A DNA stretch of 64,000 nt from the IMG/VR virus record IMGVR_UViG_3300033463_000025, positions 64,001-128,000 of that record; one strand, 5' to 3'. Of this stretch, positions 7,744 through 53,078 are shown one piece after another. The translations under genes were made by a program, and so were the position numbers. Origin of the DNA: a virus (taxonomy: Duplodnaviria > Caudoviricetes). The notes below the pieces were generated by a model. It did not search any database. It was not told the DNA's origin and was given only the letters and a program-made list of their open reading frames with translations. How positions within the stretch are numbered: the first letter of the stretch is position 1; each line of letters starts with the position of its first letter.

Positions 7744-9278
7744 TTATGTTATAGATTTTAATAAATGGGCTATGACTTCAACAGTCCAGCCGTTACCTAA
7801 ACATTTATATGCTTGTGAGTTGCTAATCACACTAAAGTCATACCATTCTGGTACTGTCTGCAACCGCATACATTCTCTTACTGTTAGTTTACGAATTATG
7901 TAAAAGCCATCAGACAACTTAATCGGATATGTTTTTCCTTTAATTGTTATCTGTCCATTGACAACTTCGTAAACCGTATATACTTTACCATCGGCAAAGC
8001 TCTTAGCTTTTATAGGTATATCATCTTGCCATTCACACGGTTCAGCATAATGTAACGGATTTTGTGTATTAATCGTTACAGCATACAGCCCTGTCTTACC
8101 ACCAAGACCACCACCATTAGCAGACAACGTAACAGATTTGCCATCTTGCGAATATACCCTCATCGCTTGAGAATTATTTGTTTCTCCATTCGATGACGGC
8201 ATACATCCTACCTGTTCAGCTACCATGCTTTTACAGCCTTTTTCTATAGTATGGCTCACATAGTTCCCTATGTTTTCTCCGCTACCGTTTTTATATCCTG
8301 CTGTTAAGCAATAAGATTTATCGTTCTTAGTCATTCCCACTGGCTCTGCAACACCACTCGCGCCATATGTTGAAGTGTATTTACAGATGTTTGCAATACT
8401 CGTTTGTTGATATTGTGCCTTAATAGTTTGTGACTTTCCTTCACCAGTCGTATTCACTGGTTCAATCGTTCGGGCAACAACGTCGCTCGTTGGATTAGAT
8501 GCTAAACAATATGCTTTATCTTTTACACCAACTCTACGATTGCTTAAATCACCAACCATTGAAAACGCTTTAGGTAACGCAACAGGCTCAACCGCCATAT
8601 TTCGTTGATGCCGCTCTATGGTGTTCCACGCAACCGCACCGCCATAAGCTGTGGTTAGCGTCCAGCCTTTTTCGTTGCTCGTCAAATCATCGGCGTTATT
8701 TTCGAGAATATCTCTTAGTAATATTCCTCTATCCTCTGGCTGTTCTATATCCGCCTTTTGATATGTACCATCTTCTTGACGAATACCAACCCAATACAAC
8801 CGCTGACGGTTTTGAGCTGAAACAAGTGCAGAATTTATACAAATCGGCTCAAATCCAAATGTGTCAGAAATGCTGTCATAAATAGCTCTTGACATTGATT
8901 TGTTGTTTTCGTAAAGAAAGTATTTCGGTTTTGCTTCTTTAATAGCTCTTACAAACTGGCTAAACAATTCCCAGCCCATACCGCTTGCTTCTGTTTCGCG
9001 GTTGTTCTTTTGAGCGATGCTCCAAAAAGTACAGGGCGAACCTCCGATAAGATAATCAATACCGTCAAACTGCGTATAGTCTGCATCAAATACATCACCA
9101 CACTGGATGATACTCGGAAAGTTATGCTGGCTAACTTGAATAGCATACTTATCTATCTCATAAGCATAATAGTCTTTGACTTCTATACCAAGTCTTTTGA
9201 ACGCCAACATACCACAAGACATTCCATCAAATAAACTAAGAACAGATACCCCATCTTGTGATGAAATATCTCTTTCAT
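7744..9278 (-). CDS. C5 cytosine DNA methyltransferase (start unresolved)
   Basis: VLSLFDG (motif I, upstream of track start 9222), GGSPC, YENN, QNRQR, GNGW; long variable region. Confidence 0.9.
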
Positions 9279-14917: not shown

Positions 14918-14991
14918 TGGTGCAAAATGTCGGAGTCGAACCGCCCTTCTACATCCCAAATGTAGTGTGCTACCGCCACACCCCATTCTGC
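14918..14991 (-). tRNA. tRNA-Pro(TGG)
   Basis: Anticodon arm CTACA-TTTGGGA-TGTAG, GTTCGA T-loop, encoded CCA. Confidence 0.85.
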
Positions 14992-15070
14992 CTGTTAAAC
15001 CCTCTCGACCAAAGAGGGTATTTAGTTTCATCCGAGGTCTTATGTCGTGTCTGAACGCCCCGAAGGTCAT

Positions 15071-15156
15071 TGGTGCTGGTGGAGGGACTTGAACCCTCAC
15101 GCCGTATTGACATCGGAGCTTAAATCCGATGCGTCTGCCAATTCCGCCACACCAGC
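15071..15156 (-). tRNA. tRNA-Leu(TAA)
   Basis: GCTGGTG acceptor, TCGGA-TTTAAGC-TCCGA, long variable arm, encoded CCA. Confidence 0.92.
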
Positions 15157-15175: not shown

Positions 15176-15442
15176 CTATGAAACCTTTTTATCAAGCCAT
15201 TTATATAGATTATCTATATCACGTTGGCACTCAATTCTAAACGATACTTCGTAATCGCCGTGCGTAACGCCTCTAAATGTTATACTCCACACTCTTCCAT
15301 CACGGCTGTCAAAGCAAGAGTCAATACATTTTATAGCTCTTCGGTGTCGTATGTGATTTATTTCATACATATGTTCACCCCAAGAGTTATTCTTTTTTAT
15401 GTATTCAAGTAATTTGCAGAATTGTTCAGGTGTCATTTCCAA
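15176..15442 (-). CDS. hypothetical protein
   Basis: 88-aa ORF coupled to the RT stop. Confidence 0.6.
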   Translation of the reverse strand: MEMTPEQFCKLLEYIKKNNSWGEHMYEINHIRHRRAIKCIDSCFDSRDGRVWSITFRGVTHGDYEVSFRIECQRDIDNLYKWLDKKVS

Positions 15443-16530
15443 TTCCTTTTCTTTTTCTTTGCTCTCTTTTCAATTTTTGATATTACAGATTTTTCTACCA
15501 ATTCAAAACCAGCAATATCATTGATTCTGTGGTCTAAGCGTATGCCTACCGTATGACAATCAGCACGAGAAATATGCTCACGCCATGAGTAATAAGATTG
15601 CCTAAACTTTTCAACGGTCAACCTACCTGCGGCGACAAGTTTTGCCATCTTTACATATTTTCTTTGTGCTGTTCGTTTCTTAGAATTATCTAACCTTCGT
15701 ACAATCACGCCGCTATTGGTGATATATGTATGGAATCCTAAGAACGCAATCCCGTTTTTAATAGGAAATATCTGTGTCTTATTATTTAGCTTTAATCCAA
15801 GTGATTCAATAAAGCTCGTAATGGCTTCTAAACAGTATTTAAGATATTCTAAATCGTGATGTACAAGATAGAAGTCATCCATATACCTGCCGAAATAAGC
15901 AATACCAAGTTCGCCAGTTATAAGTTTATCTAATCCATCCAAGTATAATACAGCAAACATCTGATTAACTTGATTGCCTAACGGCAAGCCAACATCTTCC
16001 GTGCTGTCAATAAACTTGTTACACAGCCACACAATTCCTTCGTCATATCCAAAATAGTATTCAACTATATCTTTCAATAAATCATGCGGTATGTTGTAGA
16101 AATATTTAGATATATCACACTTGAGAATATAGCCATTAAGACCGTGCCTTTTATAAAAGTTCTTTAAATGTTTGCTTAATTGATTAAGTGCTAAATCAAT
16201 TCCTTTACCGTCTTGCCCTGCGTAGTTATCTAATAAAAAGATTTCTTTTGAACGCAACTGCAAAACATTATCACACAGGCTATGCTGTACAACATTATCT
16301 TTAAAACCAGCGACTTTGATTTCACGCTCTTTAGGTTCAAAAACTAAAAAGGTATTATAAGCATCAAGTTCATACGTTCTGTTTTCAAGAAGTGATTTGA
16401 TAGTTAGTACACCATCTAACGCACTAATGTCAAACTTAGCTGTACTCTTCTTTTTACCTCTACCACATTTAGCATCCTTAAAAGCGTTATAAATGTTTTT
16501 AAAATCCGTTACTAATTCAAAATCTGTTAT
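15433..16530 (-). CDS. DGR reverse transcriptase (about 365 aa, probable ATA start)
   Basis: Frame open from 16530: ITDFELVTDFKNIY...FEPKEREI...FKDNVVQHSLCD...GKG...LKCDISKYF...GLPLGNQ...RYMDD...FLG. Confidence 0.95.
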   Translation of the reverse strand: MTDFELVTDFKNIYNAFKDAKCGRGKKKSTAKFDISALDGVLTIKSLLENRTYELDAYNTFLVFEPKEREIKVAGFKDNVVQHSLCDNVLQLRSKEIFLLDNYAGQDGKGIDLALNQLSKHLKNFYKRHGLNGYILKCDISKYFYNIPHDLLKDIVEYYFGYDEGIVWLCNKFIDSTEDVGLPLGNQVNQMFAVLYLDGLDKLITGELGIAYFGRYMDDFYLVHHDLEYLKYCLEAITSFIESLGLKLNNKTQIFPIKNGIAFLGFHTYITNSGVIVRRLDNSKKRTAQRKYVKMAKLVAAGRLTVEKFRQSYYSWREHISRADCHTVGIRLDHRINDIAGFELVEKSVISKIEKRAKKKKRNWK

Positions 16531-16639
16531 ACAGCATTACCTCTTTGCTTTTTATCCCTATTGGGAAGGGTCATACATTCTTTTGGCAGTGGTGCATTGA
16601 TTTCCGCCTTTTGCGTACTCTGTCGAGCTATCCACCAAT

Positions 16640-16708
16640 ACGGACGAAGCCCATTCTCGTTGTTGTAGTTGTTGTTGTTGATGTTACCGTGAGGCGACAC
16701 ACAAAGAG
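16640..16708 (-). repeat. DGR template repeat (TR)
   Basis: AAC-rich (CVSPHGNINNNNYNNENGLRP), between avd and RT; differs from both VRs only at adenines. Confidence 0.95.
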
Positions 16709-16735
16709 AAAGGTTACAACGCATAACCCATATAA

Positions 16736-17107
16736 CTACTTGTATTCTGACGTTCTCCACGCAATAGATAAGTGTTTTACATCTTTTACCAAACCACTCC
16801 AATATTCCGCAGACTTGTCTGACAACAATTTAATTTCCATTGAAAGCTCGATATAAAATAATAGTTCATCGCAATATGCAATAGCTTTAGTAATTGCTTC
16901 ACAACGCTCCGCTTTATTGCGTCTATTATCAATTCGATTTGCTTCTAACAGTGTATCAAATATATCTAAACACTTAATTTGTATTTTATCTCCGAGAGAG
17001 TGACGATATTTCTTAGGGTATCTATCGCTATTTGAAGTTATAATATATGTATGTTTCGCAAGCTCTTTGGCTTTAGAAACAACTATCGGTTCATCATTTC
17101 GTGACAT
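16736..17107 (-). CDS. avd: DGR accessory variability determinant (Avd-like four-helix bundle)
   Basis: 123-aa helical protein, YPKKYRHSLGDKI motif, canonical position between target and TR. Confidence 0.85.
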   Translation of the reverse strand: MSRNDEPIVVSKAKELAKHTYIITSNSDRYPKKYRHSLGDKIQIKCLDIFDTLLEANRIDNRRNKAERCEAITKAIAYCDELLFYIELSMEIKLLSDKSAEYWSGLVKDVKHLSIAWRTSEYK

Positions 17108-17730
17108 TAGTTCGTTGGAGATACAAAGATATTAGAGTCAAAGATACAAAACGGACGAAGCCCATACTCGCGGTTGTAGACGTAGTGGTCGATGTCACCG
17201 CGAGGCGACACACACTTTACCCAAGTGCTATCCTCATGCTTAGGTGTGCTAAACGCCGTAACCAGCCACCACCATTTATTGACTTTAAACTTATCAAGAA
17301 TATCGACATACCTACGATACAGGTTTGTGGTAAGCAAAGAAACCTTACGCTTAACCTTGCCATAATCCTTCAGACCATCATCAGAAGTAAGGTCAACCGT
17401 GTGTAAAACAAGATTATCTGCTCCGATAATACTCTCAATTTCTGTGGCGAAAACTTTACAAGCATCATCAGCAAGCGAGCCATCAAAGTTATTGTTCTTG
17501 TTGCTAAACTTTTGGCAATCCTTGAGAAGATTTTTACAGATTACTGCGGTTGTAAAAGCTGAATGTTCAAGTACAATAAACTCGTACTTACCAATCTTGA
17601 ATGTTCTACCTGCTTTCAGACTTCCTAACTGCACAGCACCAATACCGAAACTATCTTGGATTTCAGCTACTTGTGCATCGGTTAAGAAAATCTTTTGACC
17701 GTTAAGCTGAATAAAATTCTTGTTTGCCAT
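17107..17730 (-). CDS. DGR target protein 1 (DUF6273/C-type-lectin-like fold, tentative)
   Basis: WWWLVT...CVSPRG...YGLRPF C-terminus containing VR1; ATG 17730 with GGAGG RBS. Confidence 0.9.
   Translation of the reverse strand: MANKNFIQLNGQKIFLTDAQVAEIQDSFGIGAVQLGSLKAGRTFKIGKYEFIVLEHSAFTTAVICKNLLKDCQKFSNKNNNFDGSLADDACKVFATEIESIIGADNLVLHTVDLTSDDGLKDYGKVKRKVSLLTTNLYRRYVDILDKFKVNKWWWLVTAFSTPKHEDSTWVKCVSPRGDIDHYVYNREYGLRPFCIFDSNIFVSPTN
17151..17214 (-). repeat. DGR variable repeat VR1
   Basis: 64-nt match to TR with 10 mismatches, all at TR adenines. Confidence 0.95.
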
Positions 17731-17771
17731 TTTTGATTTCCTCCAACTATTATTAAAAATTTTCAATATTC

Positions 17772-18110
17772 TCATTTTTTGTTAGCCCTACAAATCGTTC
17801 CGTGGTTCATAAAACCCATAAATGTGTGGAATTGCAAGCTCTCAATCCAACCGTAATGTCTAATTGCATCGCGCAAATAAAACATTGTTTCGCCTTTAGC
17901 TTTTAGTGCTAAATATTCTTCAACACTTTTAATAGGTTCGCCTTTGTAATACCGTCTACGACTTTCTAAATATTCGTTATACTTTTTGTATTTTTCGCAC
18001 TCACGACAAATCTTCGCCTTTTCTCCAAAATCACGAGCATAATATCGCACATTTCCACTTTTATATTGATAGCTATATGCGTACTCGCATTTGTTACACG
18101 GTTTATTCAT
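17772..18110 (-). CDS. hypothetical protein
   Basis: 112-aa ORF with CxxC pairs. Confidence 0.65.
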   Translation of the reverse strand: MNKPCNKCEYAYSYQYKSGNVRYYARDFGEKAKICRECEKYKKYNEYLESRRRYYKGEPIKSVEEYLALKAKGETMFYLRDAIRHYGWIESLQFHTFMGFMNHGTICRANKK

Positions 18111-19273: not shown

Positions 19274-19351
19274 TGGTGCATCGTCTGGGAGTCGAACCCA
19301 GCACCTGTTGATTATGAGTCAACTGCTCTAAACCTGATGAGCTAACGATAC
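19274..19351 (-). tRNA. tRNA with CAT anticodon (Ile2 or elongator Met)
   Basis: GTTGA-CTCATAA-TCAAC, GTTCGA, encoded CCA. Confidence 0.88.
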
Positions 19352-19451
19352 GTCTTTGTATCGGTCTATTCCCGATTGCCAACTATACACTCAATGAGTG
19401 CATAGATTTTAATGAAAAGAAGTAAGTAATGAATCGTTGTACGAAGACAAC

Positions 19452-19526
19452 TGGCTGGGGAGGCGAGAATCGAACTCACGAATAATCGGGTCAAAGCCGA
19501 GTGCCTTACCGCTTGGCTACTCCCCA
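19452..19526 (-). tRNA. tRNA-Gln(TTG)
   Basis: TGGGGAG acceptor, TCGG-CTTTGAC-CCGA, encoded CCA. Confidence 0.9.
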
Positions 19527-19757: not shown

Positions 19758-19976
19758 TTTTCACGTTCCACAATTTTATAATATAGGGGTCAACCTCTTT
19801 CGCAACCTTCCGATACTATCCACACCAAATACGAATTTGTACAGATTCGAGTTTGGCTTGCGCTTGTGGCAAGTTTCCCGTGGCTCTTACCCACACCTCA
19901 ATCTTACGTTTCTTATTATAGCACCATTAACAGCGTTTGTCAATAGCTCTATTGAATTATTTTATAAAATTCTTAA

Positions 19977-20360
19977 TCATTCATTTTGTCCAAGAATAAC
20001 AACAAAATCATCATTATCTTCAGCAAGTAAAGCCATCATATTTCTTGTATCGTCGTCGCAATAATCAACACGCTTTTGAATAATACTAAAACCACGCTCA
20101 AAATATGATTTGCTTGCCTCTAACTCTTCGCAAAACCAGTCCTCATAGTCTTCACCATAGGTATCAAATAAATACTTGCGATAGTCTTCTTCATTCTTAA
20201 ATATACAAGCATCTTCTGTTTCATAATAATACCTATTATTTTCAAAATGAACAAACAATTCGACCATCTTATCAAAATACTTTACGGCAGGATTTTCACG
20301 GTAAGCGATGATAAAACTACTGCTTGAGCTATTTGTTACATAGTCTGTTCTTATTTTCAT
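19977..20360 (-). CDS. 'TNSSSSSF' leader family protein 6
   Basis: MKIRTDYVTNSSSSSF. Confidence 0.85.
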   Translation of the reverse strand: MKIRTDYVTNSSSSSFIIAYRENPAVKYFDKMVELFVHFENNRYYYETEDACIFKNEEDYRKYLFDTYGEDYEDWFCEELEASKSYFERGFSIIQKRVDYCDDDTRNMMALLAEDNDDFVVILGQNE

Positions 20361-20380
20361 ACTATCCTCCGCGTGATTTC

Positions 20381-20932
20381 TTATACTTGTTTATTCCAAT
20401 CAGTAATAGCTTTCTCTCTACTATTTACGAATGAAGTTGTTTCCCAAGCATTACCACATTGACAATTAACCTTATACCCTTTAGATTCATAGCCAGAACC
20501 GTAATCGCCTTCTGATACATAGAGCCATGATGTATTGCATTTAGGGCAAGGTTTGAGCTGTTCTTTAGATTGATTTTTGATATTGCTATCGACAACGATT
20601 CCGACGCAATACAGCTCACCGTCTTCATAGATATTGAACTCGGCGTGTGGCATTTCTGTTTTATAACTCCATGCACAATCGCGTTCTTTATCGCACCATA
20701 CAGCTTCTATAGGTTTTGGCAATCTCTTATCCTCTATAATGCCACCACCAAAACAACCGTATTCGTCACGGAACGCTCCATAGATTTCACAGTTGTCATC
20801 ACTATAACCAGTTACGACAATAAAGCCCAAACTCTTTGCAAGCTCTTCTTCGGCAGGAGATATTTCATTACCGTATTCCCCACCGTTAAGCATTTTTGCA
20901 AAATCATATATAGTCATATCCATATCTATCAC
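20381..20932 (-). CDS. hypothetical protein with C-terminal Lar-like (restriction alleviation) zinc domain
   Basis: EQLKPCPKC...C.CG...EKAITDWN. Confidence 0.6.
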   Translation of the reverse strand: MIDMDMTIYDFAKMLNGGEYGNEISPAEEELAKSLGFIVVTGYSDDNCEIYGAFRDEYGCFGGGIIEDKRLPKPIEAVWCDKERDCAWSYKTEMPHAEFNIYEDGELYCVGIVVDSNIKNQSKEQLKPCPKCNTSWLYVSEGDYGSGYESKGYKVNCQCGNAWETTSFVNSREKAITDWNKQV

Positions 20933-21585
20933 CCCATATGGTTACAGTACAACGATGATACTTTAGCAAGTGATTCTCTTACATAATCGGGAATATAGCA
21001 ACCGTCTTCACCCCAAACAGCATAGTGACCGAATATGCTATATATTACATCTCTGCCTAATTTTCCTTTTATGCTACTGCACGTTAGCTTTTTCGTGTTA
21101 AACCTATAATCTTTTACACAGCAAATATCAGGGTAACACCCACCATCATAGCCGTTATCAAGACAAGGTAAATACCAACCTGCAACGCTGTCCGCCGTGT
21201 CTGTGTCTTTGCTCAAATCGTGAATACTGAAGTCAATATACCATTTCCAATTTTTACCATGCAAAGGCTCAAACTTTTTACGGAAATATGATATGTATTC
21301 ATCATACGTTTCGCATGAATCTATCCAGCTATCATCACACTCTTCGTAAAACAAATCGTATGTTGATATACCATATTTATTTTTAATTCTCGTTTCGTTC
21401 TCATATTTCCAATTCCAATTATCCGCTTTACTGCCATACTTGCTTCTTATCAAATTTGACTTTTCACGATGCTCTCTAAACTTTTCGCGGATAAAAGAAT
21501 AAATATCATCAATAGTCCAGTCATCGCGGCTAATTACGAAAGAAGAACTACTCGAATTTGTTACAAAGTCTGTACGAATTTTCAT
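20929..21585 (-). CDS. 'TNSSSSSF' leader family protein 5
   Basis: MKIRTDFVTNSSSSSF. Confidence 0.85.
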   Translation of the reverse strand: MKIRTDFVTNSSSSSFVISRDDWTIDDIYSFIREKFREHREKSNLIRSKYGSKADNWNWKYENETRIKNKYGISTYDLFYEECDDSWIDSCETYDEYISYFRKKFEPLHGKNWKWYIDFSIHDLSKDTDTADSVAGWYLPCLDNGYDGGCYPDICCVKDYRFNTKKLTCSSIKGKLGRDVIYSIFGHYAVWGEDGCYIPDYVRESLAKVSSLYCNHMG

Positions 21586-21968
21586 TAGCAACCACCCACT
21601 CCTATTACGAGTTTATCATTGTTAATACGGAAGGTATCTAAAAACATATCAAAGTCATTGAGGTAATCATCAGTGTCAATCGTTCTTACATAAGCGATAA
21701 AGTCACCAATCTCAACATTCCAATATCCATTATCAGAAGAAACATAATCAAGAACAATATCCATTAATTCTTCTTTATCTTTCAACCTATCTTTTAACGA
21801 ATATGGCAAATGAGCAAAATAACGCTTCATAGCTTTAACATATCTGCTATACCAATCTTTATCAGATTCAATAAGCTCACGCAGTTCATCACGAGTTACA
21901 TCTTTGCGTTTTGCGATAATGAACGATGAGCTACTTGAATTTGTTACGAAATCAGTTCTAATCTTCAT
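21585..21968 (-). CDS. 'TNSSSSSF' leader family protein 4
   Basis: MKIRTDFVTNSSSSSF. Confidence 0.85.
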   Translation of the reverse strand: MKIRTDFVTNSSSSSFIIAKRKDVTRDELRELIESDKDWYSRYVKAMKRYFAHLPYSLKDRLKDKEELMDIVLDYVSSDNGYWNVEIGDFIAYVRTIDTDDYLNDFDMFLDTFRINNDKLVIGVGGC

Positions 21969-22281
21969 AGAGAGAACCCCTTTCTTCTGGCTTTAGTAAT
22001 ATCCATTTTACAAAAGAAAAAATTGCAACAATTAAAAGTAACAATCCAAATACCAATACCATAAATGCGTCTAATGGAAGAAAAACTATCTGAAACACAA
22101 CTCCGACAATTATTCTTGGTATCAAACGATACTTTTTATTTGATATAAAATAATATGATGATGGTAATGCAGGTGAAATAAATGTATCAATAAAAGGCGA
22201 GTGAGTCAGTTTATATATCATCATCCCGAAAAAAGCGGGAACATAAATAATAATGATTAATTCAAACAAAGTCATCAACAT
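21958..22281 (-). CDS. membrane protein
   Basis: Two to three hydrophobic helices. Confidence 0.7.
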   Translation of the reverse strand: MLMTLFELIIIIYVPAFFGMMIYKLTHSPFIDTFISPALPSSYYFISNKKYRLIPRIIVGVVFQIVFLPLDAFMVLVFGLLLLIVAIFSFVKWILLKPEERGSLYED

Positions 22282-22284
22282 ACC

Positions 22285-22791
22285 TCAATGATGATTATAA
22301 ACACCAACAGTAAAGCCACAACGCGGGAGAATATGATGTTCCAATTCACAACCAACAATATCATCATCGCCAAATGTTACAAGACAAACCAAATCTTTAT
22401 CTTTGATTCTTGCTTTGACTCTTTTTATCTCATCTTGAATACGTTGTTCAATTTCCGCTTTTCCTTCTTCGGTTTTGCTATATTTGTATGCCTCAATATA
22501 AGATGTTCGGTTTTCAATTTCATAGTTATGTCTGACTTCATATTCAGCGTTCCAACGATATTCCTCGTAAACTATCTCATCAATCTTTGCAACATTAAGC
22601 AAACCATTTAATTTATTCTTTAATTCTTCAATAACTGCTGGCTTATACTTTAAATAATCCTCAACAGACCAACAATCCATATAACACTCAACGCTATTCT
22701 GAACTATTTGGTCAATATCATCGCTTGAATTAAACGCTAAAATAAAACTGCTACTGCTACTATTAGTCACAAAGTCTGTGCGGATTTTCAT
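22285..22791 (-). CDS. 'TNSSSSSF' leader family protein 3
   Basis: MKIRTDFVTNSSSSSF, ends YNHH. Confidence 0.85.
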   Translation of the reverse strand: MKIRTDFVTNSSSSSFILAFNSSDDIDQIVQNSVECYMDCWSVEDYLKYKPAVIEELKNKLNGLLNVAKIDEIVYEEYRWNAEYEVRHNYEIENRTSYIEAYKYSKTEEGKAEIEQRIQDEIKRVKARIKDKDLVCLVTFGDDDIVGCELEHHILPRCGFTVGVYNHH

Positions 22792-22816
22792 TTGCAATCA
22801 ACCCCTCTTTTAAAAA

Positions 22817-23191
22817 TCAATGATGACTATAACGTGTCACGGTACAGTATAAATAAGGGAAATATTCATGTTCTAAAAATGATTCTATATCAGTATCATC
22901 TTCAATTTCAATTTTAAAAAACCTATCAAATCCCTTTTTATCAGCAAGTTTTTTAATTCGTTCTACTTCAGCATCGCAATCGCTTCTGTAGTATTCTAAC
23001 ATAGATTTTATATTGTCCGTATCAACAACATCAGAAGCAAACTCAAGCAAATGTTCTACTAAAGTATCAGCAAAATATCTATCAATACTATTTCTAATAG
23101 CATCAAATTTACTATCACATTCTTTTGAATTGTAGCCAATAATAAAACTGCTACTGCTACTATTAGTTACAAAATCTTGTCTAAATTTCAT
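22817..23191 (-). CDS. 'TNSSSSSF' leader family protein 2
   Basis: MKFRQDFVTNSSSSSF, ends YSHH. Confidence 0.85.
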   Translation of the reverse strand: MKFRQDFVTNSSSSSFIIGYNSKECDSKFDAIRNSIDRYFADTLVEHLLEFASDVVDTDNIKSMLEYYRSDCDAEVERIKKLADKKGFDRFFKIEIEDDTDIESFLEHEYFPYLYCTVTRYSHH

Positions 23192-23537
23192 CTAAAATAT
23201 CTCCTAATTCATTATCATCACAATTATACGGATTGCCTGGTAAATCATCTTCATCATAATATATGTGAGAGCTGTCTACTCCAATGGCGCATAGAAAACT
23301 CTCTAAATCAAAATTATCCATTGATGTCCATGCACTAAGATAACGCCCTTCGTCAATAATAGTCCACTCATCTTCAAAATCTGCCCAACCAAAATGATAT
23401 GAACCTCTTTTAAGTAATCTCTTAGCAACCTCAATATGATTTTTGATTGCCCTAATTTGATTTTTAGTTAATCCACGCTTATCAATAATAAAGCTCGACG
23501 ATGATGAATTTGTAACAAAATCTGTTCTGATTTTCAT
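23181..23537 (-). CDS. 'TNSSSSSF' leader family protein 1
   Basis: MKIRTDFVTNSSSSSF, GAGG RBS. Confidence 0.85.
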   Translation of the reverse strand: MKIRTDFVTNSSSSSFIIDKRGLTKNQIRAIKNHIEVAKRLLKRGSYHFGWADFEDEWTIIDEGRYLSAWTSMDNFDLESFLCAIGVDSSHIYYDEDDLPGNPYNCDDNELGDILDEI

Positions 23538-23555
23538 ATGACTACCTCATCAAAA

Positions 23556-23807
23556 TTATTTATCAAATTCTTTCCACTCTATTCTTTTTCCACAATGCCC
23601 ACAATAATTAGAATGTGACCATGACTCTATCGGATATTTACAGCAACTACATTTACCCCAAAACCATTTCCCAAATGCAGTTTGTACTGTATTCATTTCT
23701 TCTGGTGTATTATGAGATATGCGGTAACACTCTGCAATTTCTTCTGTGATATTGTTGATTTCTACTCCTGTGCGAATGTCACGAAACGGATAACTACTAT
23801 TTTTCAT
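23556..23807 (-). CDS. zinc-ribbon protein
   Basis: CSCC...YCGHCGKRIEW. Confidence 0.65.
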   Translation of the reverse strand: MKNSSYPFRDIRTGVEINNITEEIAECYRISHNTPEEMNTVQTAFGKWFWGKCSCCKYPIESWSHSNYCGHCGKRIEWKEFDK

Positions 23808-24064
23808 AAATATATCATCCTCTTTAACAGCTTTATTCCATCGGTATTTAACAGCTTTTCTTTATCCTCATTATCCATGAGCTTTGCATTAACAAGGTAA
23901 TTAACCAAAAAGCTATAATCTCTTATCAAATCTCTGGCGCAAAAGTTTAAATCTTCATATTTACCGAGAGCGTTCCTCAATGCCTGAATCTCATCATATG
24001 GGTTATCATATTCTACGCATGAACCATAATCACCCATAGAAGATTTATAAGTAAGCCTACTCAT
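23804..24064 (-). CDS. hypothetical protein
   Basis: MSRLT...ALGKYED; start moved to 24064. Confidence 0.6.
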   Translation of the reverse strand: MSRLTYKSSMGDYGSCVEYDNPYDEIQALRNALGKYEDLNFCARDLIRDYSFLVNYLVNAKLMDNEDKEKLLNTDGIKLLKRMIYL

Positions 24065-24368
24065 TATCTTCAACCACCATCTTAGAACGTATGCTGTACA
24101 ATCCGCATAGAGCCATTTCAAGTTTTTCAATTCTGCCACGCAAAGACCTAATCGTTTCATCTAAGTCTTTGCCATCAGCCGAATAATAATATCCACGATG
24201 ACAAGAGCAAACCGCAAAACCGTCACTTCTTGCTTCGTTTATATATTGACGAACAGTAAACTCGCTAAGTGAAAATCTGTCACCTAATTCACGACCTATG
24301 ATAGATTTGTCCTTTTCGTTGGCGTAAGTGATAATATAATTAATCAAAGGCATATATCTTTTCATCAT
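24057..24368 (-). CDS. winged-helix protein
   Basis: GRELGDRFSLSEFTVRQYINEAR...RGYYY; start moved to 24368. Confidence 0.7.
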   Translation of the reverse strand: MMKRYMPLINYIITYANEKDKSIIGRELGDRFSLSEFTVRQYINEARSDGFAVCSCHRGYYYSADGKDLDETIRSLRGRIEKLEMALCGLYSIRSKMVVEDNE

Positions 24369-25426
24369 ACACAATCCTTTTCTGCATTGTTGCAAAGTAC
24401 AATTTCTCTGCAAATCGGACAGCCACCAGCACAGCAACCGCGCTTCGGGCAATTCGGACAAGAGTTAGCCAGAGAATATCTAAACTTGTTAAATACTTCT
24501 CCATCCCATGCCTCTTGAATTGTGTGGTTTCGTAGATTAACAAACCATTTAGGATTCTGATTGCCAAAACTACAGGGCATGGCGTTCATATGAGCATCAA
24601 TATACATCGAGAAGCGTCCGCCCTCGCAATAGTCGATACTGTCAAGATTGATTTTTGACGTATTGTTTACGATGCCTGCACAAGAGCAAGAATCAAAACC
24701 GATTTTGAAGTCAAATTTTCCATTGTCTATAATATCGAAAAACTCTTTCACTTTCGGATTGTCGGGCGTTAAGATGTTTTCAATCTTACCTAAACCGATA
24801 GGCTTATAAAGCAGAAAGACAATAGCGTTAATACCCTTATGGAAGCCGTTATTCTTTAAGCGGTCGATAGCATCATCAATACTCTTTGCAGATAAGACGT
24901 AATGGATGTTAGTCTTTACACCAGCCTCGATAAGAAGATTCAATGCTCTTTCGGTATAATCAGCATTGTGCTCAGATACGGCGACCGCGCCACAATACTG
25001 TTTACAAAGCTCCGCCTTTTCTTTTGTAAAAGCGATACCAGATGTAGTAAAGTTCGGTACAACTCCATACTGACGAGAGAGCTTTAAGATTTCTTCAAAG
25101 TGTTCGTGCGTATCAGGGTCGCCAGCTCCACCGAGAGCTACTTGGAACAGCTTGCCTTCTCCCTGTTTCATTATATCTTCGTAATCATCAAGGCTCATAT
25201 TCTCGCCCGTTCTGTCACAAGCCTTTTGGTAACAATCCACTTTACACTTGTGAGCACAAACGCATCTTTCCATTATGCCAATGTCAATAAGCTGTGGGAA
25301 GTTCCGCATAAACGGGTCAACGCCTGTGTCTTTTCCATCCTCAATAACACCTGTTCTCATATAAAAACCTGTGTTCGGGTCAAACTGTTCTACAAACTTG
25401 TTTTTTCTGTCAATATAAACGTTCAT
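24365..25426 (-). CDS. radical SAM protein with SPASM domain
   Basis: CVCAHKCKVDCYQ, ALGGAGDP, FTTSG; C-terminal CEGG...PCSF...CPNC...CAGGCP. Confidence 0.9.
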   Translation of the reverse strand: MNVYIDRKNKFVEQFDPNTGFYMRTGVIEDGKDTGVDPFMRNFPQLIDIGIMERCVCAHKCKVDCYQKACDRTGENMSLDDYEDIMKQGEGKLFQVALGGAGDPDTHEHFEEILKLSRQYGVVPNFTTSGIAFTKEKAELCKQYCGAVAVSEHNADYTERALNLLIEAGVKTNIHYVLSAKSIDDAIDRLKNNGFHKGINAIVFLLYKPIGLGKIENILTPDNPKVKEFFDIIDNGKFDFKIGFDSCSCAGIVNNTSKINLDSIDYCEGGRFSMYIDAHMNAMPCSFGNQNPKWFVNLRNHTIQEAWDGEVFNKFRYSLANSCPNCPKRGCCAGGCPICREIVLCNNAEKDCV

Positions 25427-26153: not shown

Positions 26154-26198
26154 ATCGTTATTTTATCACTCTATTGAGTTATGTTATAAATTATTTTT

Positions 26199-26224
26199 TA
26201 TAGGGGCTGGTTAAGCCCCTATAA
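26199..26224 (-). terminator. intrinsic terminator-like hairpin
   Basis: TATAGGGGCT-GGTTA-AGCCCCTATA downstream of the 26227 ORF. Confidence 0.65.
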
Positions 26225-26226
26225 AA

Positions 26227-27168
26227 TTACACCACGAATGTACTTAATTGTGGTAACAGATTATACATTCTCGCTGGGTTCGCACCGTAATCTCTGAGAT
26301 ACGGAATAAGTACATCATTACTACCTTCACCCGTTACAGCTTTATCAACTACGTCCTTCCCCAACTTACTTACAAGATAATCATACAATCCGCGTTGCCA
26401 CAATCTTGTAGCATTAAATCTTGTATTTGAATACGGGGTAACATCTCTTGAAAACTTAGACCGTGCTCGTAGCACTACATCTTTTAGCGGAATATCCTCA
26501 ATGCTTTCGTCCTTCTCGCTGATGAGTCCCATATAACTTTTATGCCAAGTCAGGTTATAGTATTTACGTCCTCGATATGCTGATACATAAAGCGGCGTAT
26601 AATGTTGCTTCTCAAGCAGTTCCGCCGTTCTATCCGATAAAGTAATAGTCCTTCCTAACAGTTTTATTCTCGGTAAGTCCACCATATCTTCCGTGATACT
26701 ATAAAGCTCATCAAACGATGATATTCCTTCGTAGAACAGTCTAATTGAACACTCTAAATGTTCCGCTGTGCATTTGCCAGACTTGTAGATTTCGTTAATT
26801 ACATACTCAATCTCTTTCTTGTCCAACGGCGACAAGCGTTGTTTTGCACGTTCAAACAATGCTTTTGGCGATAGCTCCGCTTTATTCCACGGATTTCGCA
26901 CAGGCTCGTAAGTGTCAATATAGTATTCAAATACCTGCTTATAGAACCATACATAGGCTCTATACGTTGTTACCGATGTGCCTGGAGGATAAGCGTCCAT
27001 CAATTCGATGCAGTCTTGAACAGTGAAGTCAATGAATTGTTTACCTAATTTTTTCTCGACTTCAAATAGTTCAGGTCGCAAATAGACGTTGCGATTTCTC
27101 CGCACAACCTCATCATTACTTTTGTCGAACACTTCATCAAATAATTGCTGAGTAGAGATAACTGCCAT
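26227..27168 (-). CDS. degenerate tyrosine-recombinase-fold protein, MrpR/YopR-like repressor candidate
   Basis: Core-binding-like N-terminus; RLFYEGISSFDELYSITEDMVD resembles integrase box I but lacks the catalytic Arg; no HxxR. Confidence 0.55.
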   Translation of the reverse strand: MAVISTQQLFDEVFDKSNDEVVRRNRNVYLRPELFEVEKKLGKQFIDFTVQDCIELMDAYPPGTSVTTYRAYVWFYKQVFEYYIDTYEPVRNPWNKAELSPKALFERAKQRLSPLDKKEIEYVINEIYKSGKCTAEHLECSIRLFYEGISSFDELYSITEDMVDLPRIKLLGRTITLSDRTAELLEKQHYTPLYVSAYRGRKYYNLTWHKSYMGLISEKDESIEDIPLKDVVLRARSKFSRDVTPYSNTRFNATRLWQRGLYDYLVSKLGKDVVDKAVTGEGSNDVLIPYLRDYGANPARMYNLLPQLSTFVV

Positions 27169-27243: not shown

Positions 27244-27615
27244 TCATATCGCTTGCAAAATAGGAAATTGAATCAGCATCGCTTTCATTATTTCGCCTAC
27301 GATATTCCCTTTTACTTCTCCGATTGGCTTATCCAAATTTTCCATTGGTAATGTACTAATCTGTTCCACCAACAACGTACTTGGCACTCGCAATCCACAT
27401 TCTTTATAATTCCAAATCTCAACGTGAATCGGTAACTTCCGTTTATTCATTTTTGAAGTAATCGGGATAACATTGACAATATCGGCATAAGTGTTATTCA
27501 AATCATTGGAAAGAATAAGCACAGGTCGATAACCACTCTGTACGCTCCCCGCCTTACTCGGCAGTTTGCACAGCCAAATCTGCCCACATTTAGGCTTATC
27601 GTTTTTGCCACACAT
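27244..27615 (-). CDS. PemK/MazF-family endoribonuclease toxin
   Basis: GQIW...GSVQSGYRPVLILSNDLNN...VIPITS...LVEQIST. Confidence 0.9.
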   Translation of the reverse strand: MCGKNDKPKCGQIWLCKLPSKAGSVQSGYRPVLILSNDLNNTYADIVNVIPITSKMNKRKLPIHVEIWNYKECGLRVPSTLLVEQISTLPMENLDKPIGEVKGNIVGEIMKAMLIQFPILQAI

Positions 27616-27759
27616 AAAACCACCTCTCTGCATTGAAATATGTAACACAAATGCAAATGGGTTTTATGCTCGCAATCAGCAATTATCCGTATTTACTTTT
27701 GGTAATTACACATCTCTCCTTTGGCAAAAGTAGTTTCCGTAGCATTATTGGTTTCTGTA

Positions 27760-27975
27760 TTATTCAAGATATTTTGTTTTAAGCTCAACGGGATTCGCCG
27801 CCTTTCCAAGTTTTTCCGCTTTATCATCTACCAGCTTATATAAGAAATATTGACTTCTCTCTATTTTGGAAGTAACAAAATAAGTTGTTCCGTTCGTATG
27901 GTACGTTTCCCACACAATCTCTGTCTTCGGTATTCCCTTAATGGCTTTATTCGGAATAGGGATGCCATCTATCAC
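27760..27975 (-). CDS. hypothetical protein
   Basis: GTG start overlapping the recombinase stop. Confidence 0.6.
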   Translation of the reverse strand: MIDGIPIPNKAIKGIPKTEIVWETYHTNGTTYFVTSKIERSQYFLYKLVDDKAEKLGKAANPVELKTKYLE

Positions 27976-28904
27976 TTAGCTACCCCCTCGGCATAACTGA
28001 ACACATCATTGACAGCTTTAATATGAATTTGCGGGTCAGTAACATTCGCGTTCTGACATCCTGCCTGATATGCCATAGTGATAAGTTCACGCAGGTCGTT
28101 GTTATCAAGCAACATCATGGGCGAGTCTGATTCGGGTGAATAGGTTTTATCACCAAAGATATAATCCTTCCAAAAGTCACCCATATCAGAAGTGTACTTC
28201 TCTGTAGCCTCACGGTCAACGCCTGTATAGCGTCTTGTTACAGCTTCACTTGAATGATTAAAGCCACGGCTTACAATCTGCATAGCATTTGGGTCTGTCT
28301 TATGAAGCTCAATGCTGGTTTTACCAAACGTCTTTCGGGAGCTGTGTGTGCCTAAATTACGTTCGATGTTCAGCTTCTTCATAACGTCCTTCAGCGCATA
28401 CATAGCACCAGAGTAGGACAACACAGAACCTTTGTGCGTTCCAGTAAACTGATAGAACACTTCGCGCTTGTAATCGTCGGTCGCTGGGTCATAACCAACA
28501 GCACAGAGATACTTGCCAATAGCAATCTTGACAGCCTCATTGATTTTTGGGGAAGCATACTTGCCTGTTTTCTGCTCTTTGATAGCCTTCAAGTTTTCTC
28601 TGAAATTACCCGTTTGCGGATTAAAGAAATCTTCCCACGTCAGCTTGCACATATCAGAAAAGCGTCGTGCAAGGTTATAAGACGTAACAAACAGAAGATA
28701 GTGAATCCACTTGTTATTCTGTTCAAAGTATTCTACCACACGCTTAGTGTCTTCGATAGATAACTCGTGAACCTCACAGCTTTTTCCTTTACACTTACTT
28801 GCTTTCTTAGCAACTGGCGTTTCTTCATGCTGAGGGAACAGCTCAATAACATTCCCTCTTGTAACTGTATTCGGATTATAATTTACAATAGCTGGTGCTG
28901 GCAT
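27972..28904 (-). CDS. tyrosine recombinase/integrase
   Basis: Complete catalytic set: RFSD, EQKTGK, HSSRK, HSS, RY; ATG 28904 with AAGGAG RBS. Confidence 0.92.
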   Translation of the reverse strand: MPAPAIVNYNPNTVTRGNVIELFPQHEETPVAKKASKCKGKSCEVHELSIEDTKRVVEYFEQNNKWIHYLLFVTSYNLARRFSDMCKLTWEDFFNPQTGNFRENLKAIKEQKTGKYASPKINEAVKIAIGKYLCAVGYDPATDDYKREVFYQFTGTHKGSVLSYSGAMYALKDVMKKLNIERNLGTHSSRKTFGKTSIELHKTDPNAMQIVSRGFNHSSEAVTRRYTGVDREATEKYTSDMGDFWKDYIFGDKTYSPESDSPMMLLDNNDLRELITMAYQAGCQNANVTDPQIHIKAVNDVFSYAEGVAK

Positions 28905-29109
28905 ATCCTTCAGCTCCTTTCTTAGATTGACTGCATTATACCACAAGGAATAACATTTGTCAATAGGTTTATTGAGTTATTTTATAAAAAGTTTTTCACA
29001 TACATGAATCAAATTTTCCATCAAGCGACTTTTAAACTAAGTTAAAAAAAACGCTATATAGATGTAATATATAATTAATTTATATAGAATACTCTATTAG
29101 TATATAATC

Positions 29110-29868: not shown

Positions 29869-31686
29869 TTATGCAACCGTTTCTTCCAACATGAGCACTT
29901 TGCTTTCGGGAGAAACGATAAAACGCTCACGCTGGGCGAATGTCTGATTGTACGATTCCTCGCCTTCAAATTCATCTATTACTCGGCGTTCTTCTTCGTC
30001 CATAGCTTTGTATGTTTTCTTTCCGTAGGACGGCGGCAACCAGCCCTTCTTCATACAGCCGTAAATGTTAAACTTCTTCAGAACGTCAAGGTCGGTAAAC
30101 TTGATATGAACTGTACCCTTCTTGTACACGTTTACATCGAAATACTTGAAATGCAAATTCTTTGTGGTCTGCGTTTTTTCGTATGCCTCTAACCAATGGT
30201 GAAGGTCGCGCTGAATTTCATTTTCTCCACCATCAAGGAAGTCAAAACACTTTTCAATATCGTCAAGGATTCTGCCGATTTCTCCGTCATAGAAGTTATA
30301 CTTGAATTTACCCCAAATAGAATCCCAACATCTACACCACGGCACAACAACCCTGGGATTGATGATGAAAGCAGAGTTAGATTTCCAACCGCTGAAGTAG
30401 TGAACGTTTCCACTTGCTTCCATTGAATGTTTGTATGTCAGCTTTTCAAAGAGCGATATGATTTTATCCTCGATACCTTGAGCTACAGACTTGAGCATAT
30501 CAATTCTTACAGCGTAGATATTTGACAACGAAAAATCCTTCTTGGCATATTCCTTTATATCGGCAAAATACTGTTCTTTAAGATTGGAAGTAAGATTGCC
30601 GATAAATGCAGGCTTATGTAAAAGCTCATACCAATATTTGTATCTTACGGAATAAACATACTTGTTCCACTCAAAAGCCTTACCTCTTCCGTCTACCAGT
30701 CCGATATGTGCGCCGCGCTTGTATGAAGGCAACTCTTTTTCATCGCTGGCAAAGTATAAAGAAATATGCGGCGATACGGCAAGGTATTCTTCATACAGCC
30801 TCTTCCCCATCGCTATTTCTTTTTTATACATCAGCACAGCTTGACGCATATAATCAGCGGTCACAATTTCAGAAGTGTTATAGTCAGGCTCATCAACAGT
30901 GATTTCCATTTCCTCAAGCTCATCAAGGATTGTGGAATGTGCATTGTTGAACGGCGAAGGAATATCAATACGCACGATTGCACACTCAACATCTGTCTGG
31001 CGTTCAGCCTGTTTGAAAGCACCGCTAACATATTCAATCTCGGCATTGTAGAAGTCGAGCTGTTTCTTCAATTCTTTGCGCCAATTAGAATAGGGATTGT
31101 CAAGAGTCTGACGGTTAAGCAGACAAATAATCTTTCCGCCTGTTTTCTTGGCTACGTTGATTGCGTGAAGAAGATGCTCGTCGCCGTTGCTAAAAGGCGG
31201 ATTCATAATGATTAAGTCGAAGTGTTCATCGCCGTTAAACTCTAAGAAGTCGCTACCAATAACGGTATAATCTTTGTCTTTAAGGATTGCTCTAAGTCCG
31301 TCGTCAACCTCGATACAATTAACGTCTAACTTTTCACATCCCTCACGAATGTCACCAATGAGATAACGCCTTTCATCTTCATCTTGGCTATACTTTCTTT
31401 TGTTATAGTCTGCTATCCATTGAGTAGTCATGTACTTATAAATCATTTCTTCATAAGTAATTTTATAAGCAACATACTCTTCAAAGATAGGGTCTTTATA
31501 ACGATAGCTCCCCATTCTGTGGCTAACGCAGTAACGCATATAGCAAATGAAGTCTGCAATATCACCCTTGCCTGCTGACGGCTCAAGCACACTCTCAATA
31601 TCGGTCAACTTAATGCCTTTAATCATTTCCGCTACAAGTTCTGGCGGAGTCGGATAAAATTCAGTTAATGATTTGTATGTACTCAT
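29869..31686 (-). CDS. N6-adenine methyltransferase with DUF4942-like C-terminus
   Basis: FYPTP, VLEPSAGKG, IMNPPF; YFDVNVYKKGTVHIKF. Confidence 0.88.
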   Translation of the reverse strand: MSTYKSLTEFYPTPPELVAEMIKGIKLTDIESVLEPSAGKGDIADFICYMRYCVSHRMGSYRYKDPIFEEYVAYKITYEEMIYKYMTTQWIADYNKRKYSQDEDERRYLIGDIREGCEKLDVNCIEVDDGLRAILKDKDYTVIGSDFLEFNGDEHFDLIIMNPPFSNGDEHLLHAINVAKKTGGKIICLLNRQTLDNPYSNWRKELKKQLDFYNAEIEYVSGAFKQAERQTDVECAIVRIDIPSPFNNAHSTILDELEEMEITVDEPDYNTSEIVTADYMRQAVLMYKKEIAMGKRLYEEYLAVSPHISLYFASDEKELPSYKRGAHIGLVDGRGKAFEWNKYVYSVRYKYWYELLHKPAFIGNLTSNLKEQYFADIKEYAKKDFSLSNIYAVRIDMLKSVAQGIEDKIISLFEKLTYKHSMEASGNVHYFSGWKSNSAFIINPRVVVPWCRCWDSIWGKFKYNFYDGEIGRILDDIEKCFDFLDGGENEIQRDLHHWLEAYEKTQTTKNLHFKYFDVNVYKKGTVHIKFTDLDVLKKFNIYGCMKKGWLPPSYGKKTYKAMDEEERRVIDEFEGEESYNQTFAQRERFIVSPESKVLMLEETVA

Positions 31687-51390: not shown

Positions 51391-52310
51391 AATCAAAATC
51401 TCCTTTGACAAATTTATTGTGGTTATAATATATCATAGACTTTGATATGCTGTCAAGTATTTTCAGTAAATCTATTAATTTTTAATATTCAAGTTTTCTG
51501 TTGCTCCTTCCCTGGTGCATGGTGCTTCAGGTTTCCTTTGTTTTGCAAAATTCAATTTTTCCGTTATACCCATATGCACGGTAGCAATTAATCTTTATTT
51601 TTCAAAATTAAGATTTATTGTTTACTCTCCACTGGTTGATGCAGAAATTATCCATATTGAAAAATATTGTTTTTTTGAATAATAGTATTTTCCTCTGGTC
51701 AGATAACTTGTCATATATTGCAAATTATCTTTTATATCGCCGTTTAACTTGCAGTATTTTACAAATTAACTACAATGGTTTTTCTCGCGTCCTCTCGCGC
51801 TCTCTGTCTCTGTTTTACGCTTTAATAATATCCAGTTATTCTTTTATTGATTCGTTCAATACAGGGCAATTCTCGCAATAATAAAGCTATGGTTTCACGG
51901 CTCAAATTTTCCATCAAGGGCAGGCAGTAAAAGAAGATTCAAATTTTCCATCAAGGCGGATGCTCCAAACTCTTTAACCTCGGTGATACAATAAATCTTT
52001 ATTTTTCAAAATTATATTTTTCTGTTGCATTATCTTTTCCATAGTCGCCAATGAATATGATGTTATATAGTATATTATATCTTCCTCTTTTTTCCTCTTC
52101 CCTCTCTCGCTCGCCGTTCCACTGGTTGCCGTCCGCGTTTTCCTTGCTCGCCGTCGGTCGGTCAGAATTTCCCAATATTGCAAAATGAATTTTTCCAAAG
52201 TCGCCATAACAGATAATTATAATTTTCCAATATAGTGAATTTTTGTTCAGTGAAGTTTTCTTCAGCATAAGTAAAGCCCCGCAGGATTTTCCCGCAGGGC
52301 TGTCGGTCGG

Positions 52311-52613
52311 TTAGGCTGTTTTCTTTTTCCTCGGCTCAAATTTTCCTATTGCCAGCATAAAGCCAATAATAAATATTATTACTATAGCAGTAATATCTGT
52401 TTTTCCGTTCACCGTGTCAAGTATTCCACTAAATGATAATAGGATTGCAGAAGTCATAACAATTATTCCAGCCAGCCGCGTATAACGTGCAAGTCGTTTT
52501 TTTCTTTTGCTTTCTAACTTTCTTCGGCGGCTCTTGCGCTGAAGCTCAAGAAATTTCCGCCTCTCGTCAAGTCTGATATTTTCCAAGTCAAGGTCGTTTA
52601 AATAGTAGGTCAT
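52311..52613 (-). CDS. membrane protein with two transmembrane helices
   Basis: Basic stretch then two hydrophobic helices; single-gene cassette. Confidence 0.7.
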   Translation of the reverse strand: MTYYLNDLDLENIRLDERRKFLELQRKSRRRKLESKRKKRLARYTRLAGIIVMTSAILLSFSGILDTVNGKTDITAIVIIFIIGFMLAIGKFEPRKKKTA

Positions 52614-53047: not shown

Positions 53048-53066
53048 GACCCGCCTTTCGGCGGGT
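53048..53066 (-). terminator. intrinsic terminator; near-identical copies near 43817, 47652, 49985
   Basis: ACCCGCC-TTTC-GGCGGGT hairpin (GAAA loop on the minus strand) followed by a U-tract. Confidence 0.8.
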
Positions 53067-53078
53067 CTGTCGGTCTGA

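Follow-up and report, generated by a model that had tools for sequence, protein, structure and literature searches.

A portable N-terminal tag linked to a radical SAM/SPASM enzyme in phages and gut Clostridia: a putative protein-maturation system

Six tandem phage proteins that share an N-terminal, Ser-rich tag are encoded downstream of a radical S-adenosylmethionine (SAM)/SPASM enzyme in the stretch of viral DNA analyzed here (the window, 64,000 nucleotides). The window covers bases 64,001–128,000 of record IMGVR_UViG_3300033463_000025 (Caudoviricetes), a complete virus genome of 143,758 bp with direct terminal repeats; bovine gut metagenome runs contain DNA of this virus, and no RNA data set was listed as containing it. 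Computation established that tag and enzyme are genetically linked across phage and bacterial genomes, that the tag is portable, that the two partners co-vary and that they dock confidently in a complex model. We consider it probable that the enzyme serves as a dedicated maturase, which recognizes the N-terminal tag and performs radical chemistry within T9–S15. Catalysis, the modified residue, the product and the function of the client proteins are what we infer.

The tag, its protein bodies and the linked enzyme

The six window proteins open with MK[I/F]R[T/Q]D[F/Y]VTNSSSSSF, and 13 of the first 16 columns are invariant among them. The near-invariant leader of 16 residues was recovered on the six open reading frames (ORFs) named in the original prediction, with coordinates, lengths and sequences in agreement. 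A six-frame scan of the window gave no further copy, and the whole record holds these six only. The Ser run is written with TCA, TCG, TCT, AGC and AGT in an order that differs between genes. Because the codons are mixed in this way, the tag is conserved at the protein level, as had been proposed. Every tag gene is preceded by its own Shine–Dalgarno-like GGAG/GAGG.

Conservation was assessed on 201 distinct tag proteins, drawn from the window together with about 80 related loci. Residues T9, N10, S11, S12 and S13 are invariant in this set, while M1, K2, R4, F7, V8, S14, S15 and F/Y16 are nearly so and position 6 is occupied by D or G. A 36-column profile of the tag was searched against 1.84 billion cluster representatives (50% identity level, E ≤ 0.001) and matched 15,744 of them. 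Of the 150 representatives listed, nearly all have the match starting at residue 1. The tag-bearing clusters originate from samples of rumen, gut and sediment, and all are without annotation. Two tag copies occur in some database proteins (P0080-P0083, P0093, P0107 and P0141), the second usually with its own Met. These look like fusions of tandem genes or stop-codon readthrough; the internal copy of P0081 is without the MKxR part.

The 168-aa window protein (tag protein 3) matches phrog_7397 with E = 4.5e-8. Weaker, leader-only matches were given by four of the other five, and the 218-aa protein had no match at E ≤ 0.01. Both this family and phrog_7293, which contains the enzyme, are annotated "unknown function". 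Pfam, NCBIfam and PADLOC searches returned nothing significant for the six window tag proteins, and a 124-aa tag protein from bacterial loci had one weak PADLOC match (PDC-M01B, E 0.001). Beyond the two PHROGs, no curated family covers the enzyme or its tag partner. Searches of the searchable literature with the tag motif strings gave no relevant paper, and those on radical SAM, SPASM and phage gave nothing describing an enzyme–tag system.

Behind the tag the protein bodies are acidic and divergent, as originally described. Their isoelectric points (pI) range from 4.25 to 5.27 in the window, with no detectable mutual similarity; in the collected set 95% of the bodies have a pI below 5.5 and none is basic. 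The regions after residue 20 of the 201 tag proteins sort into 22 BLAST clusters. Comparison of the twelve largest clusters with hhalign gave probabilities below 8%, one pair excepted. The window proteins span five clusters, and two of them (tag proteins 2 and 3) fall in the commonest. Two window proteins end in HH and one in NHMG, endings that were read directly in the sequences as had been reported. Judged by sequence, the tag is a portable module on at least 22 unrelated acidic bodies, and not the start of one protein family.

The commonest body family, found at 57 loci, is the one ending in HH. It has a conserved D..D..G.ELEHH..P...HH C-terminus and conserved D/E/H motifs. An AlphaFold2 (AF2) model of tag protein 3 had a mean per-residue confidence (pLDDT) of 91.3, with residues 1–10 below 50 and residues 13–20 forming the first strand of the body. 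Foldseek comparison of this model with the PDB gave no match at E ≤ 0.001. The best hit of a wide VIA-align search (Z 5.3) extended over a 37-residue helix hairpin only, and ESM Atlas matches were limited to unnamed viral and Bacillota clusters. Bodies of 314–494 aa from bacterial loci are BspA-type leucine-rich repeats (LRR; LRR_5), and some other bodies resemble zinc ribbons. The body families are conserved across phages.

The tag predicted the presence of the enzyme on viral contigs. A homolog of the window enzyme was found in 76 of 79 tag loci, on the same strand and 0–6 kb upstream (blastp E ≤ 1e-56, 37–78% identity). The three exceptions were one 4-kb fragment and two tag-bearing records that are 72–78% complete (L055 and L056), in which no enzyme was found. 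A search of one genome per prokaryotic species added 80 loci, mostly from Lachnospiraceae, Oscillospiraceae and other gut or rumen Clostridia. On these bacterial and metagenome-assembled genome (MAG) contigs the enzyme was adjacent in 73 loci; three of the remaining seven are cut by a contig end, and one has its enzyme in an overlapping locus. Conversely, an enzyme profile retrieved 79 new loci from viral contigs, and 74 of these had 1–8 tag ORFs. Three of the five loci that had none end about 1.2–1.5 kb past the enzyme match, and two are contigs of 5–7 kb. This profile-based check bore out, in both directions, the co-occurrence with the radical SAM clade on which the original prediction depended.

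In phages the enzyme gene comes first and the tag genes follow. About 45 loci of Lachnospiraceae and Oscillospiraceae have instead a cassette of just two genes in the reversed order, a tag protein of about 124 aa and then the enzyme. Linkage therefore survives rearrangement. The flanks of these cassettes are unrelated and non-phage, and include two-component systems, ABC transporters, a diol dehydratase, recombinases and a restriction–modification methylase. The description of the system as phage-encoded is right for the window, but it is equally a chromosomal two-gene cassette in Clostridia. A divergent MKxRxGFVSNSSSSSF sub-family, including one marine-sediment contig, adjoins the same enzyme clade (E 6.6e-42 and 2.8e-59). 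[quoted passage not shown] Recurring neighbors were limited to two: an Xre-type helix–turn–helix (HTH) protein at 23 bacterial loci, and a protein of the HTH_11 type at 25 related phage loci.

The cluster loop of the window enzyme reads C-V-C-A-H-K-C-K-V-D-C, with C55-x5-C61-x3-C65. The SAM motif is ALGGAGD (residues 97–103), and ALGG[A/R]GD among homologs, not GGE. Pfam Radical_SAM (PF04055) scored 26.8 bits, just below its cut-off of 29.5, and SPASM (PF13186) scored 28.8 bits against a cut-off of 21.5. The SPASM Cys motifs are C267...C285 and CxxCx5(C)Cx3C. In an alignment of 19 homologs, C267-E-G-G-R...P-C285 and CPNCPKRGCCAGGC are conserved in this region. The atypical cluster motif and the Cys-rich SPASM domain thus read as originally described. 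With TIGR04085 the window enzyme scored 20 bits (cut-off 27) and the bacterial homolog L134 scored 29.4 bits. The only NCBIfam match above cut-off was to a generic SPASM-domain model, in one bacterial homolog; specific models were all far below their cut-offs, and no model for anaerobic sulfatase-maturating enzymes (anSME) was among the matches.

The three most distant members of the clade (L086, L088 and L090) are without the second (last) SPASM Cys motif and look twitch-like. Together with L252 they carry a canonical C-x3-C-x2-C at the same site, followed by YQG. The loop of a sister group is C-x7-C-x6-C, and the three Cys are retained throughout. From these alignments, the odd spacing reads as residues inserted into a canonical CxxxCxxC loop rather than as loss. 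An inactive "pseudo" radical SAM protein was considered and rejected as the leading interpretation, given the three conserved Cys and the relatives that keep the canonical loop.

A PDB sequence search found only PqqE (5.4e-5) and SkfB (3.1e-3), both weakly. The AF2 model of the enzyme (pLDDT 90.6) was closest in Foldseek to SuiB (4.6e-13), anSMEcpe (1.3e-12) and PqqE, with template modeling (TM) scores of about 0.6. Residues 1–45 form an N-terminal β-sheet extension. Pfam gave no PqqD/RRE match in the enzyme or the neighboring small proteins; no structure-based RRE comparison was made. PADLOC returned only a weak, generic radical-SAM likeness to pVip (2.4e-7). Two enzyme-homolog frames in viral loci (L012:3960-6305 and L033:4998-7364) have about 780 codons, about twice the usual number, and may represent either an N-terminal fusion or just a long upstream frame.

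Predicted reading of the tag by the enzyme

Changes in the tag are accompanied by changes in the N-terminal segment of the enzyme. Enzymes with T-G-x-Y-x-R-[S/T]-G-[V/I]-...-G-K-D-T-G go with R4/D6 tags, as do all enzymes outside the two groups that follow. Those without the five-residue loop after R24 go with G6 tags, and those with T-G-F-E-...-G-I and a six-residue gap go with K4 tags.

A complex was modeled from the enzyme (26-row alignment) and tag residues 1–40 (66-row alignment), together with SAM and three clusters. The docking score (ipSAE) was 0.88, with values of 0.86, 0.88 and 0.90 in the three runs, at least 98% of contacts shared and a partner pLDDT of at least 75. Three controls gave 0.00–0.01. 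Among solved complexes 58 of 80 attained that ipSAE mark, and among mismatched pairs 2 of 110 did; these counts hold only roughly here because our own alignments and riding ligands were used. Modeling of the enzyme–leader complex had been suggested with the original prediction, and the score stood far above that of the best control.

The modeled interface involves tag residues 1–22. On the enzyme side it comprises residues 19–37, Y66, 95–100 (SAM motif), 123–127, 146–149, 243–247, 267–269 and 285–287. Tag residues 2–4 are predicted to pair with enzyme residues 20–24, the same segment that co-varies. F7 and T9 of the tag contact the barrel strands (95, 123–125 and 146–149). Also in the interface are Y66, beside the last cluster Cys, strand 97–100 of the SAM motif and SPASM residues 243–247, 267–269 and 285–287. 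In the monomer model the far N-terminus of the client is predicted to be free to be read. On this model the leader is therefore not just a buried strand of a shared fold: residues 1–10 are unpacked, although residues 13–20 are indeed the first strand.

These features suggest a two-component protein-maturation system in which the enzyme would bind the extreme N-terminus of each client. K2–R4 of the tag would add a strand to the N-terminal β-sheet of the enzyme, doing the job of the RRE in RiPP enzymes, and D6–S15 would run into the barrel beside SAM and the iron–sulfur clusters. The enzyme would probably take a hydrogen from a residue in T9-N10-S11-S12-S13 and modify that residue. Because residues 13–20 form the first body strand, the Ser run, if it is the target, would have to be reached before or during client folding, and modification is most likely to occur at that stage. 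Ser-to-formylglycine conversion, known from anaerobic sulfatase maturases, would have the best precedent; a cross-link within the tag or an epimerization would be equally possible. Formylglycine as the specific chemistry has, in our estimate, a probability of no more than about a quarter. Since the tag is portable and fused to unrelated bodies, one enzyme may serve one to ten clients per locus.

Several observations weigh against such a maturase. Three bacterial loci with full flanks (L097, L099 and L143) encode a tag protein, yet an enzyme is absent from the 8 kb around it. Because many loci come from related phages, the co-occurrence counts exaggerate how many independent events there were, and the co-variation rests on about two evolutionary events. 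The window enzyme departs from the canonical CxxxCxxC spacing and reads GGAGD rather than GGE; its activity is assumed from the three conserved Cys and the relatives with a canonical loop. The docking score is the model's own confidence. Solved anSME–peptide and SuiB–peptide complexes exist, and they could bias the prediction. Part of the tag may also be structural, because of the first-strand position of residues 13–20 in the monomer model.

Four other explanations were weighed. In the first, the tag is a docking handle, and the bodies present third-party targets (a host protein or nucleic acid) to the enzyme as interchangeable specificity subunits. The bodies are diverse and include protein-binding LRR domains, many of them accompany one enzyme at a locus, and it is tag binding that the complex model supports, modification being a further, inferred step. 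Nevertheless, the modeled tag fills the barrel, in contact with the SAM-motif strand as well as the residue that follows the last cluster Cys, and there it would block another substrate. Its most invariant residues (T9–S13) are placed inside the enzyme, beyond the strand-pairing residues 2–4. We regard an adaptor role as unlikely.

An intrinsic role of the tag, as a Ser-rich phosphate- or metal-binding loop or as an oligomerization strand, is distinctly improbable. It would leave the enzyme linked in some other way, for example as the producer of a cofactor or ligand of the clients. The same 16 residues occur on dissimilar bodies, LRR solenoids among them. In addition, tag residues 4 and 6 co-vary with the N-terminal segment of the enzyme, the docking model is confident relative to its controls and residues 1–10 are unpacked in the monomer. 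In favor of such a role, residues 13–20 are the first strand of the HH-family fold, and the D/E/H motifs of that family hint at a metal site. It is also common for ligands to be bound by a Ser/Gly-rich loop that comes after a strand.

The N-terminal peptide might alternatively be the core of a precursor for a cofactor or other small product, as PqqA is for pyrroloquinoline quinone (PQQ) and MftA for mycofactocin; it would be modified, cut and released, with the bodies as carriers. An invariant core is typical of cofactor-type systems, and the nearest relatives of the enzyme in sequence and fold include PqqE and mycofactocin-type maturases. However, the pair is accompanied by no conserved protease, transporter or tailoring gene. 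A carrier role does not easily account for as many as ten different, well-folded bodies at one locus, and these bodies are conserved as families across phages. A precursor of this kind is very improbable.

Least credible, at a very low probability, is a capsid-targeting or export signal with only incidental synteny to the enzyme, for although an identical N-terminal tag on polymorphic small acidic phage accessory proteins recalls the T4 internal-protein loci and LRR_5 domains are often extracellular, the two-gene cassette lies in bacterial chromosomes between unrelated flanks with no phage structural genes nearby, its linkage survives inversion of the gene order, co-variation and docking both indicate that it is the enzyme that reads the tag, and the tag has no hydrophobic signal-peptide core.

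The preferred reading, a maturation system with the NSSSSS tag as recognition or modification site, is the one put forward in the original prediction. It is supported by two-way co-occurrence, by the presence of the tag on dissimilar bodies and by the complex model.

Gene block and surroundings in the window

The enzyme and the tag genes lie in a minus-strand block that runs from about 26.15 kb down to 19.98 kb in the window (Table 1). The radical SAM/SPASM gene is followed by the HTH_11 gene, two small genes and the six tag genes, among which two untagged genes are interspersed. All genes of the block share one strand, and several overlap or abut. Co-transcription of the enzyme and the tag genes is plausible from this arrangement. 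The HTH_11 protein is possibly a regulator and lies outside the conserved core. None of the other untagged genes is conserved with the enzyme–tag system.

Table 1. Features of the gene block and its surroundings (window coordinates)
Feature	Position	Strand	Evidence or remark
Radical SAM/SPASM enzyme, 353 aa, presumed maturase	24365..25426	-	Pfam SPASM 1.6e-6, Radical_SAM 6.9e-6, phrog_7293 1.6e-28
Small winged-helix protein, 103 aa from ATG at 24368, directly after enzyme	24057..24368	-	Pfam HTH_11 2.3e-6
Two small genes between HTH gene and tag array: about 86 aa; 83 aa with CxxC...CxxC	23556..24064	-	
Tag protein 1, 118 aa	23181..23537	-	Body cluster 3
Tag protein 2, 124 aa	22817..23191	-	Cluster 0; short member of HH-ending body family
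Tag protein 3, 168 aa	22285..22791	-	HH-ending body family; 79 homologs
Untagged small hydrophobic (membrane) protein, 107 aa, inside tag array	21958..22281	-	
Tag protein 4, 127 aa	21585..21968	-	Singleton body cluster
Tag protein 5, 218 aa, Cys-rich body ending NHMG	20929..21585	-	Cluster 5, whose members end MG
Untagged gene in tag array, phrog_25176 domain and C-terminal zinc ribbon like that of Lar restriction alleviation proteins	20381..20932	-	PF14354 2.2e-5, below cut-off
Tag protein 6, 127 aa	19977..20360	-	Body cluster 1; lowest pI (4.25)
Terminator-like hairpin, the only strong one	26196-26226	-	Just upstream of block
12/12 promoter-like site	19915-19943	-	Just past last tag gene, ahead of two tRNA genes
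Diversity-generating retroelement	15433-17775	-	About 2 kb downstream of tag array
Reverse transcriptase of retroelement	15433-16263		RVT_1 2.3e-13
bAvd-like accessory protein of retroelement	16736-17107		
Retroelement target gene, 222 aa	17107-17775		
3' variable region of target gene	17147-17214		84% identity to template repeat
Template repeat	16636-16703		
Tyrosine-recombinase-like gene, just upstream of operon	26227-27168	-	Weak phrog_1 match only
PemK/MazF-like toxin gene	27244-27648	-	PF02452 4e-22
Small ORF upstream of toxin gene	27760-27975		Candidate antitoxin
Tyrosine-recombinase-like gene, just upstream of operon	27972-28946	-	Phage_integrase 3.8e-8, phrog_216
Large DNA methyltransferase-like gene	7744-9222	-	phrog_116 3.8e-50
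Large DNA methyltransferase-like gene	29869-31686	-	phrog_32703 and phrog_6263
tRNA genes (five): Pro-TGG, Leu-TAA, Met-CAT, Gln-TTG, second Met-CAT	14918-15156, 19274-19526, 59404-59479		

The array lies in an accessory region of the phage that also contains a Lar-like protein, a MazF/PemK toxin, two tyrosine-recombinase-like genes, DNA methyltransferases and a diversity-generating retroelement. All 11 differences between the variable region and the template of the retroelement fall where the plus strand of the template has T and the coding strand has A; this fits adenine-directed mutagenesis. No antitoxin was identified for the toxin gene beyond the small candidate ORF.

Farther along the window, at about 52000-55000, gene orientation changes from minus to plus and the GC skew changes sign, with a cumulative skew minimum near 52 kb. 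A local GC maximum of 0.45 was observed at 52–54 kb. A replication origin or a divergent transcription boundary is possible there.

Relation to known systems and significance

The best-known work of radical SAM/SPASM enzymes is the tailoring of short peptides; whole-protein cases are few (sulfatases, QhpC and CrpA). The closest experimentally characterized analogs of the system are the anSMEs (AtsB, ChuR and anSMEcpe) and, for protein-sized SPASM substrates, the pair CrpC/CrpA. Like the window enzyme, anSMEs combine radical SAM and SPASM domains; they have no RRE, and Pfam detects none in the window enzyme. They act on whole proteins and read a short N-proximal Ser/Cys motif with the substrate peptide threaded through the barrel, as predicted here for the tag, and the folds match (Foldseek E 1.3e-12, TM 0.61 to 4k38). 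In contrast to anSME substrates, the clients have neither a sulfatase domain nor a (C/S)-x-(P/A)-x-R motif, and the tag, with its 16 residues, begins at residue 1. The enzyme differs in its cluster-loop spacing and in the extra N-terminal β-sheet that is predicted to pair with the tag.

The RiPP radical SAM/SPASM maturases (SuiB/StrB, PqqE, MftC, CteB and SkfB) provide a second comparison. Their genes likewise adjoin substrate genes that share an N-terminal recognition sequence, and the best fold match of the window enzyme is SuiB (E 4.6e-13). Here, however, Pfam detects no RRE/PqqD domain and neither a protease nor an exporter is conserved. The variable part is a folded protein of 100–490 aa instead of a short core peptide, and in the model it is the conserved part itself that enters the active site.

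The T4 internal proteins, polymorphic, fast-evolving small proteins from an accessory locus of the phage, share a short N-terminal capsid-targeting sequence, which is read by the prohead scaffold and protease. Unlike that sequence, the tag described here has a linked radical SAM enzyme with which it co-varies, and it is found in non-phage chromosomal cassettes as well.

RiPP-like chemistry on proteins has a precedent in CrpC of Methanococcus voltae, a SPASM radical SAM enzyme with a predicted RRE (PMC13692751). It was shown experimentally to modify the protein-sized CrpA, encoded in the same cluster, by installing thioether cross-links in this Cys-rich protein (PMC13692751). Unlike CrpA, the tag is free of Cys, and no common Cys pattern runs through the bodies.

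A radical SAM/SPASM maturase with genetically linked substrates is thus the known part of the system. Its new features are an N-terminal tag that is portable among unrelated folded proteins, a proposed mode of recognition without an RRE, a cluster loop that has been expanded and the size of the family, in which a single enzyme clade is tied to a tag on about 15,700 protein clusters. Should the tag be modified, it would represent a new post-translational modification and a new recognition mode, with the N-terminal sheet of the enzyme replacing the RRE. It would also provide a short tag for enzymatic protein modification, comparable to the formylglycine tags of biotechnology, and define a large unexplored class of phage accessory proteins.

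The accessory, variable and mobile neighborhoods of the system in phage and bacteria loosely fit a role in phage–host conflict, a pattern that does not amount to evidence for it. A broader picture is possible, although we hold it only tentatively and at less than even confidence. In this picture the pair would be a module able to write on any protein, placing an undescribed radical modification on Thr-Asn-Ser5. Fused to thousands of unrelated binding or effector bodies, the tag would equip phages and gut Clostridia with diversified arsenals for phage–host or inter-bacterial conflict. The acidic, fast-diversifying bodies and the LRR fusions suggest host-targeting roles.

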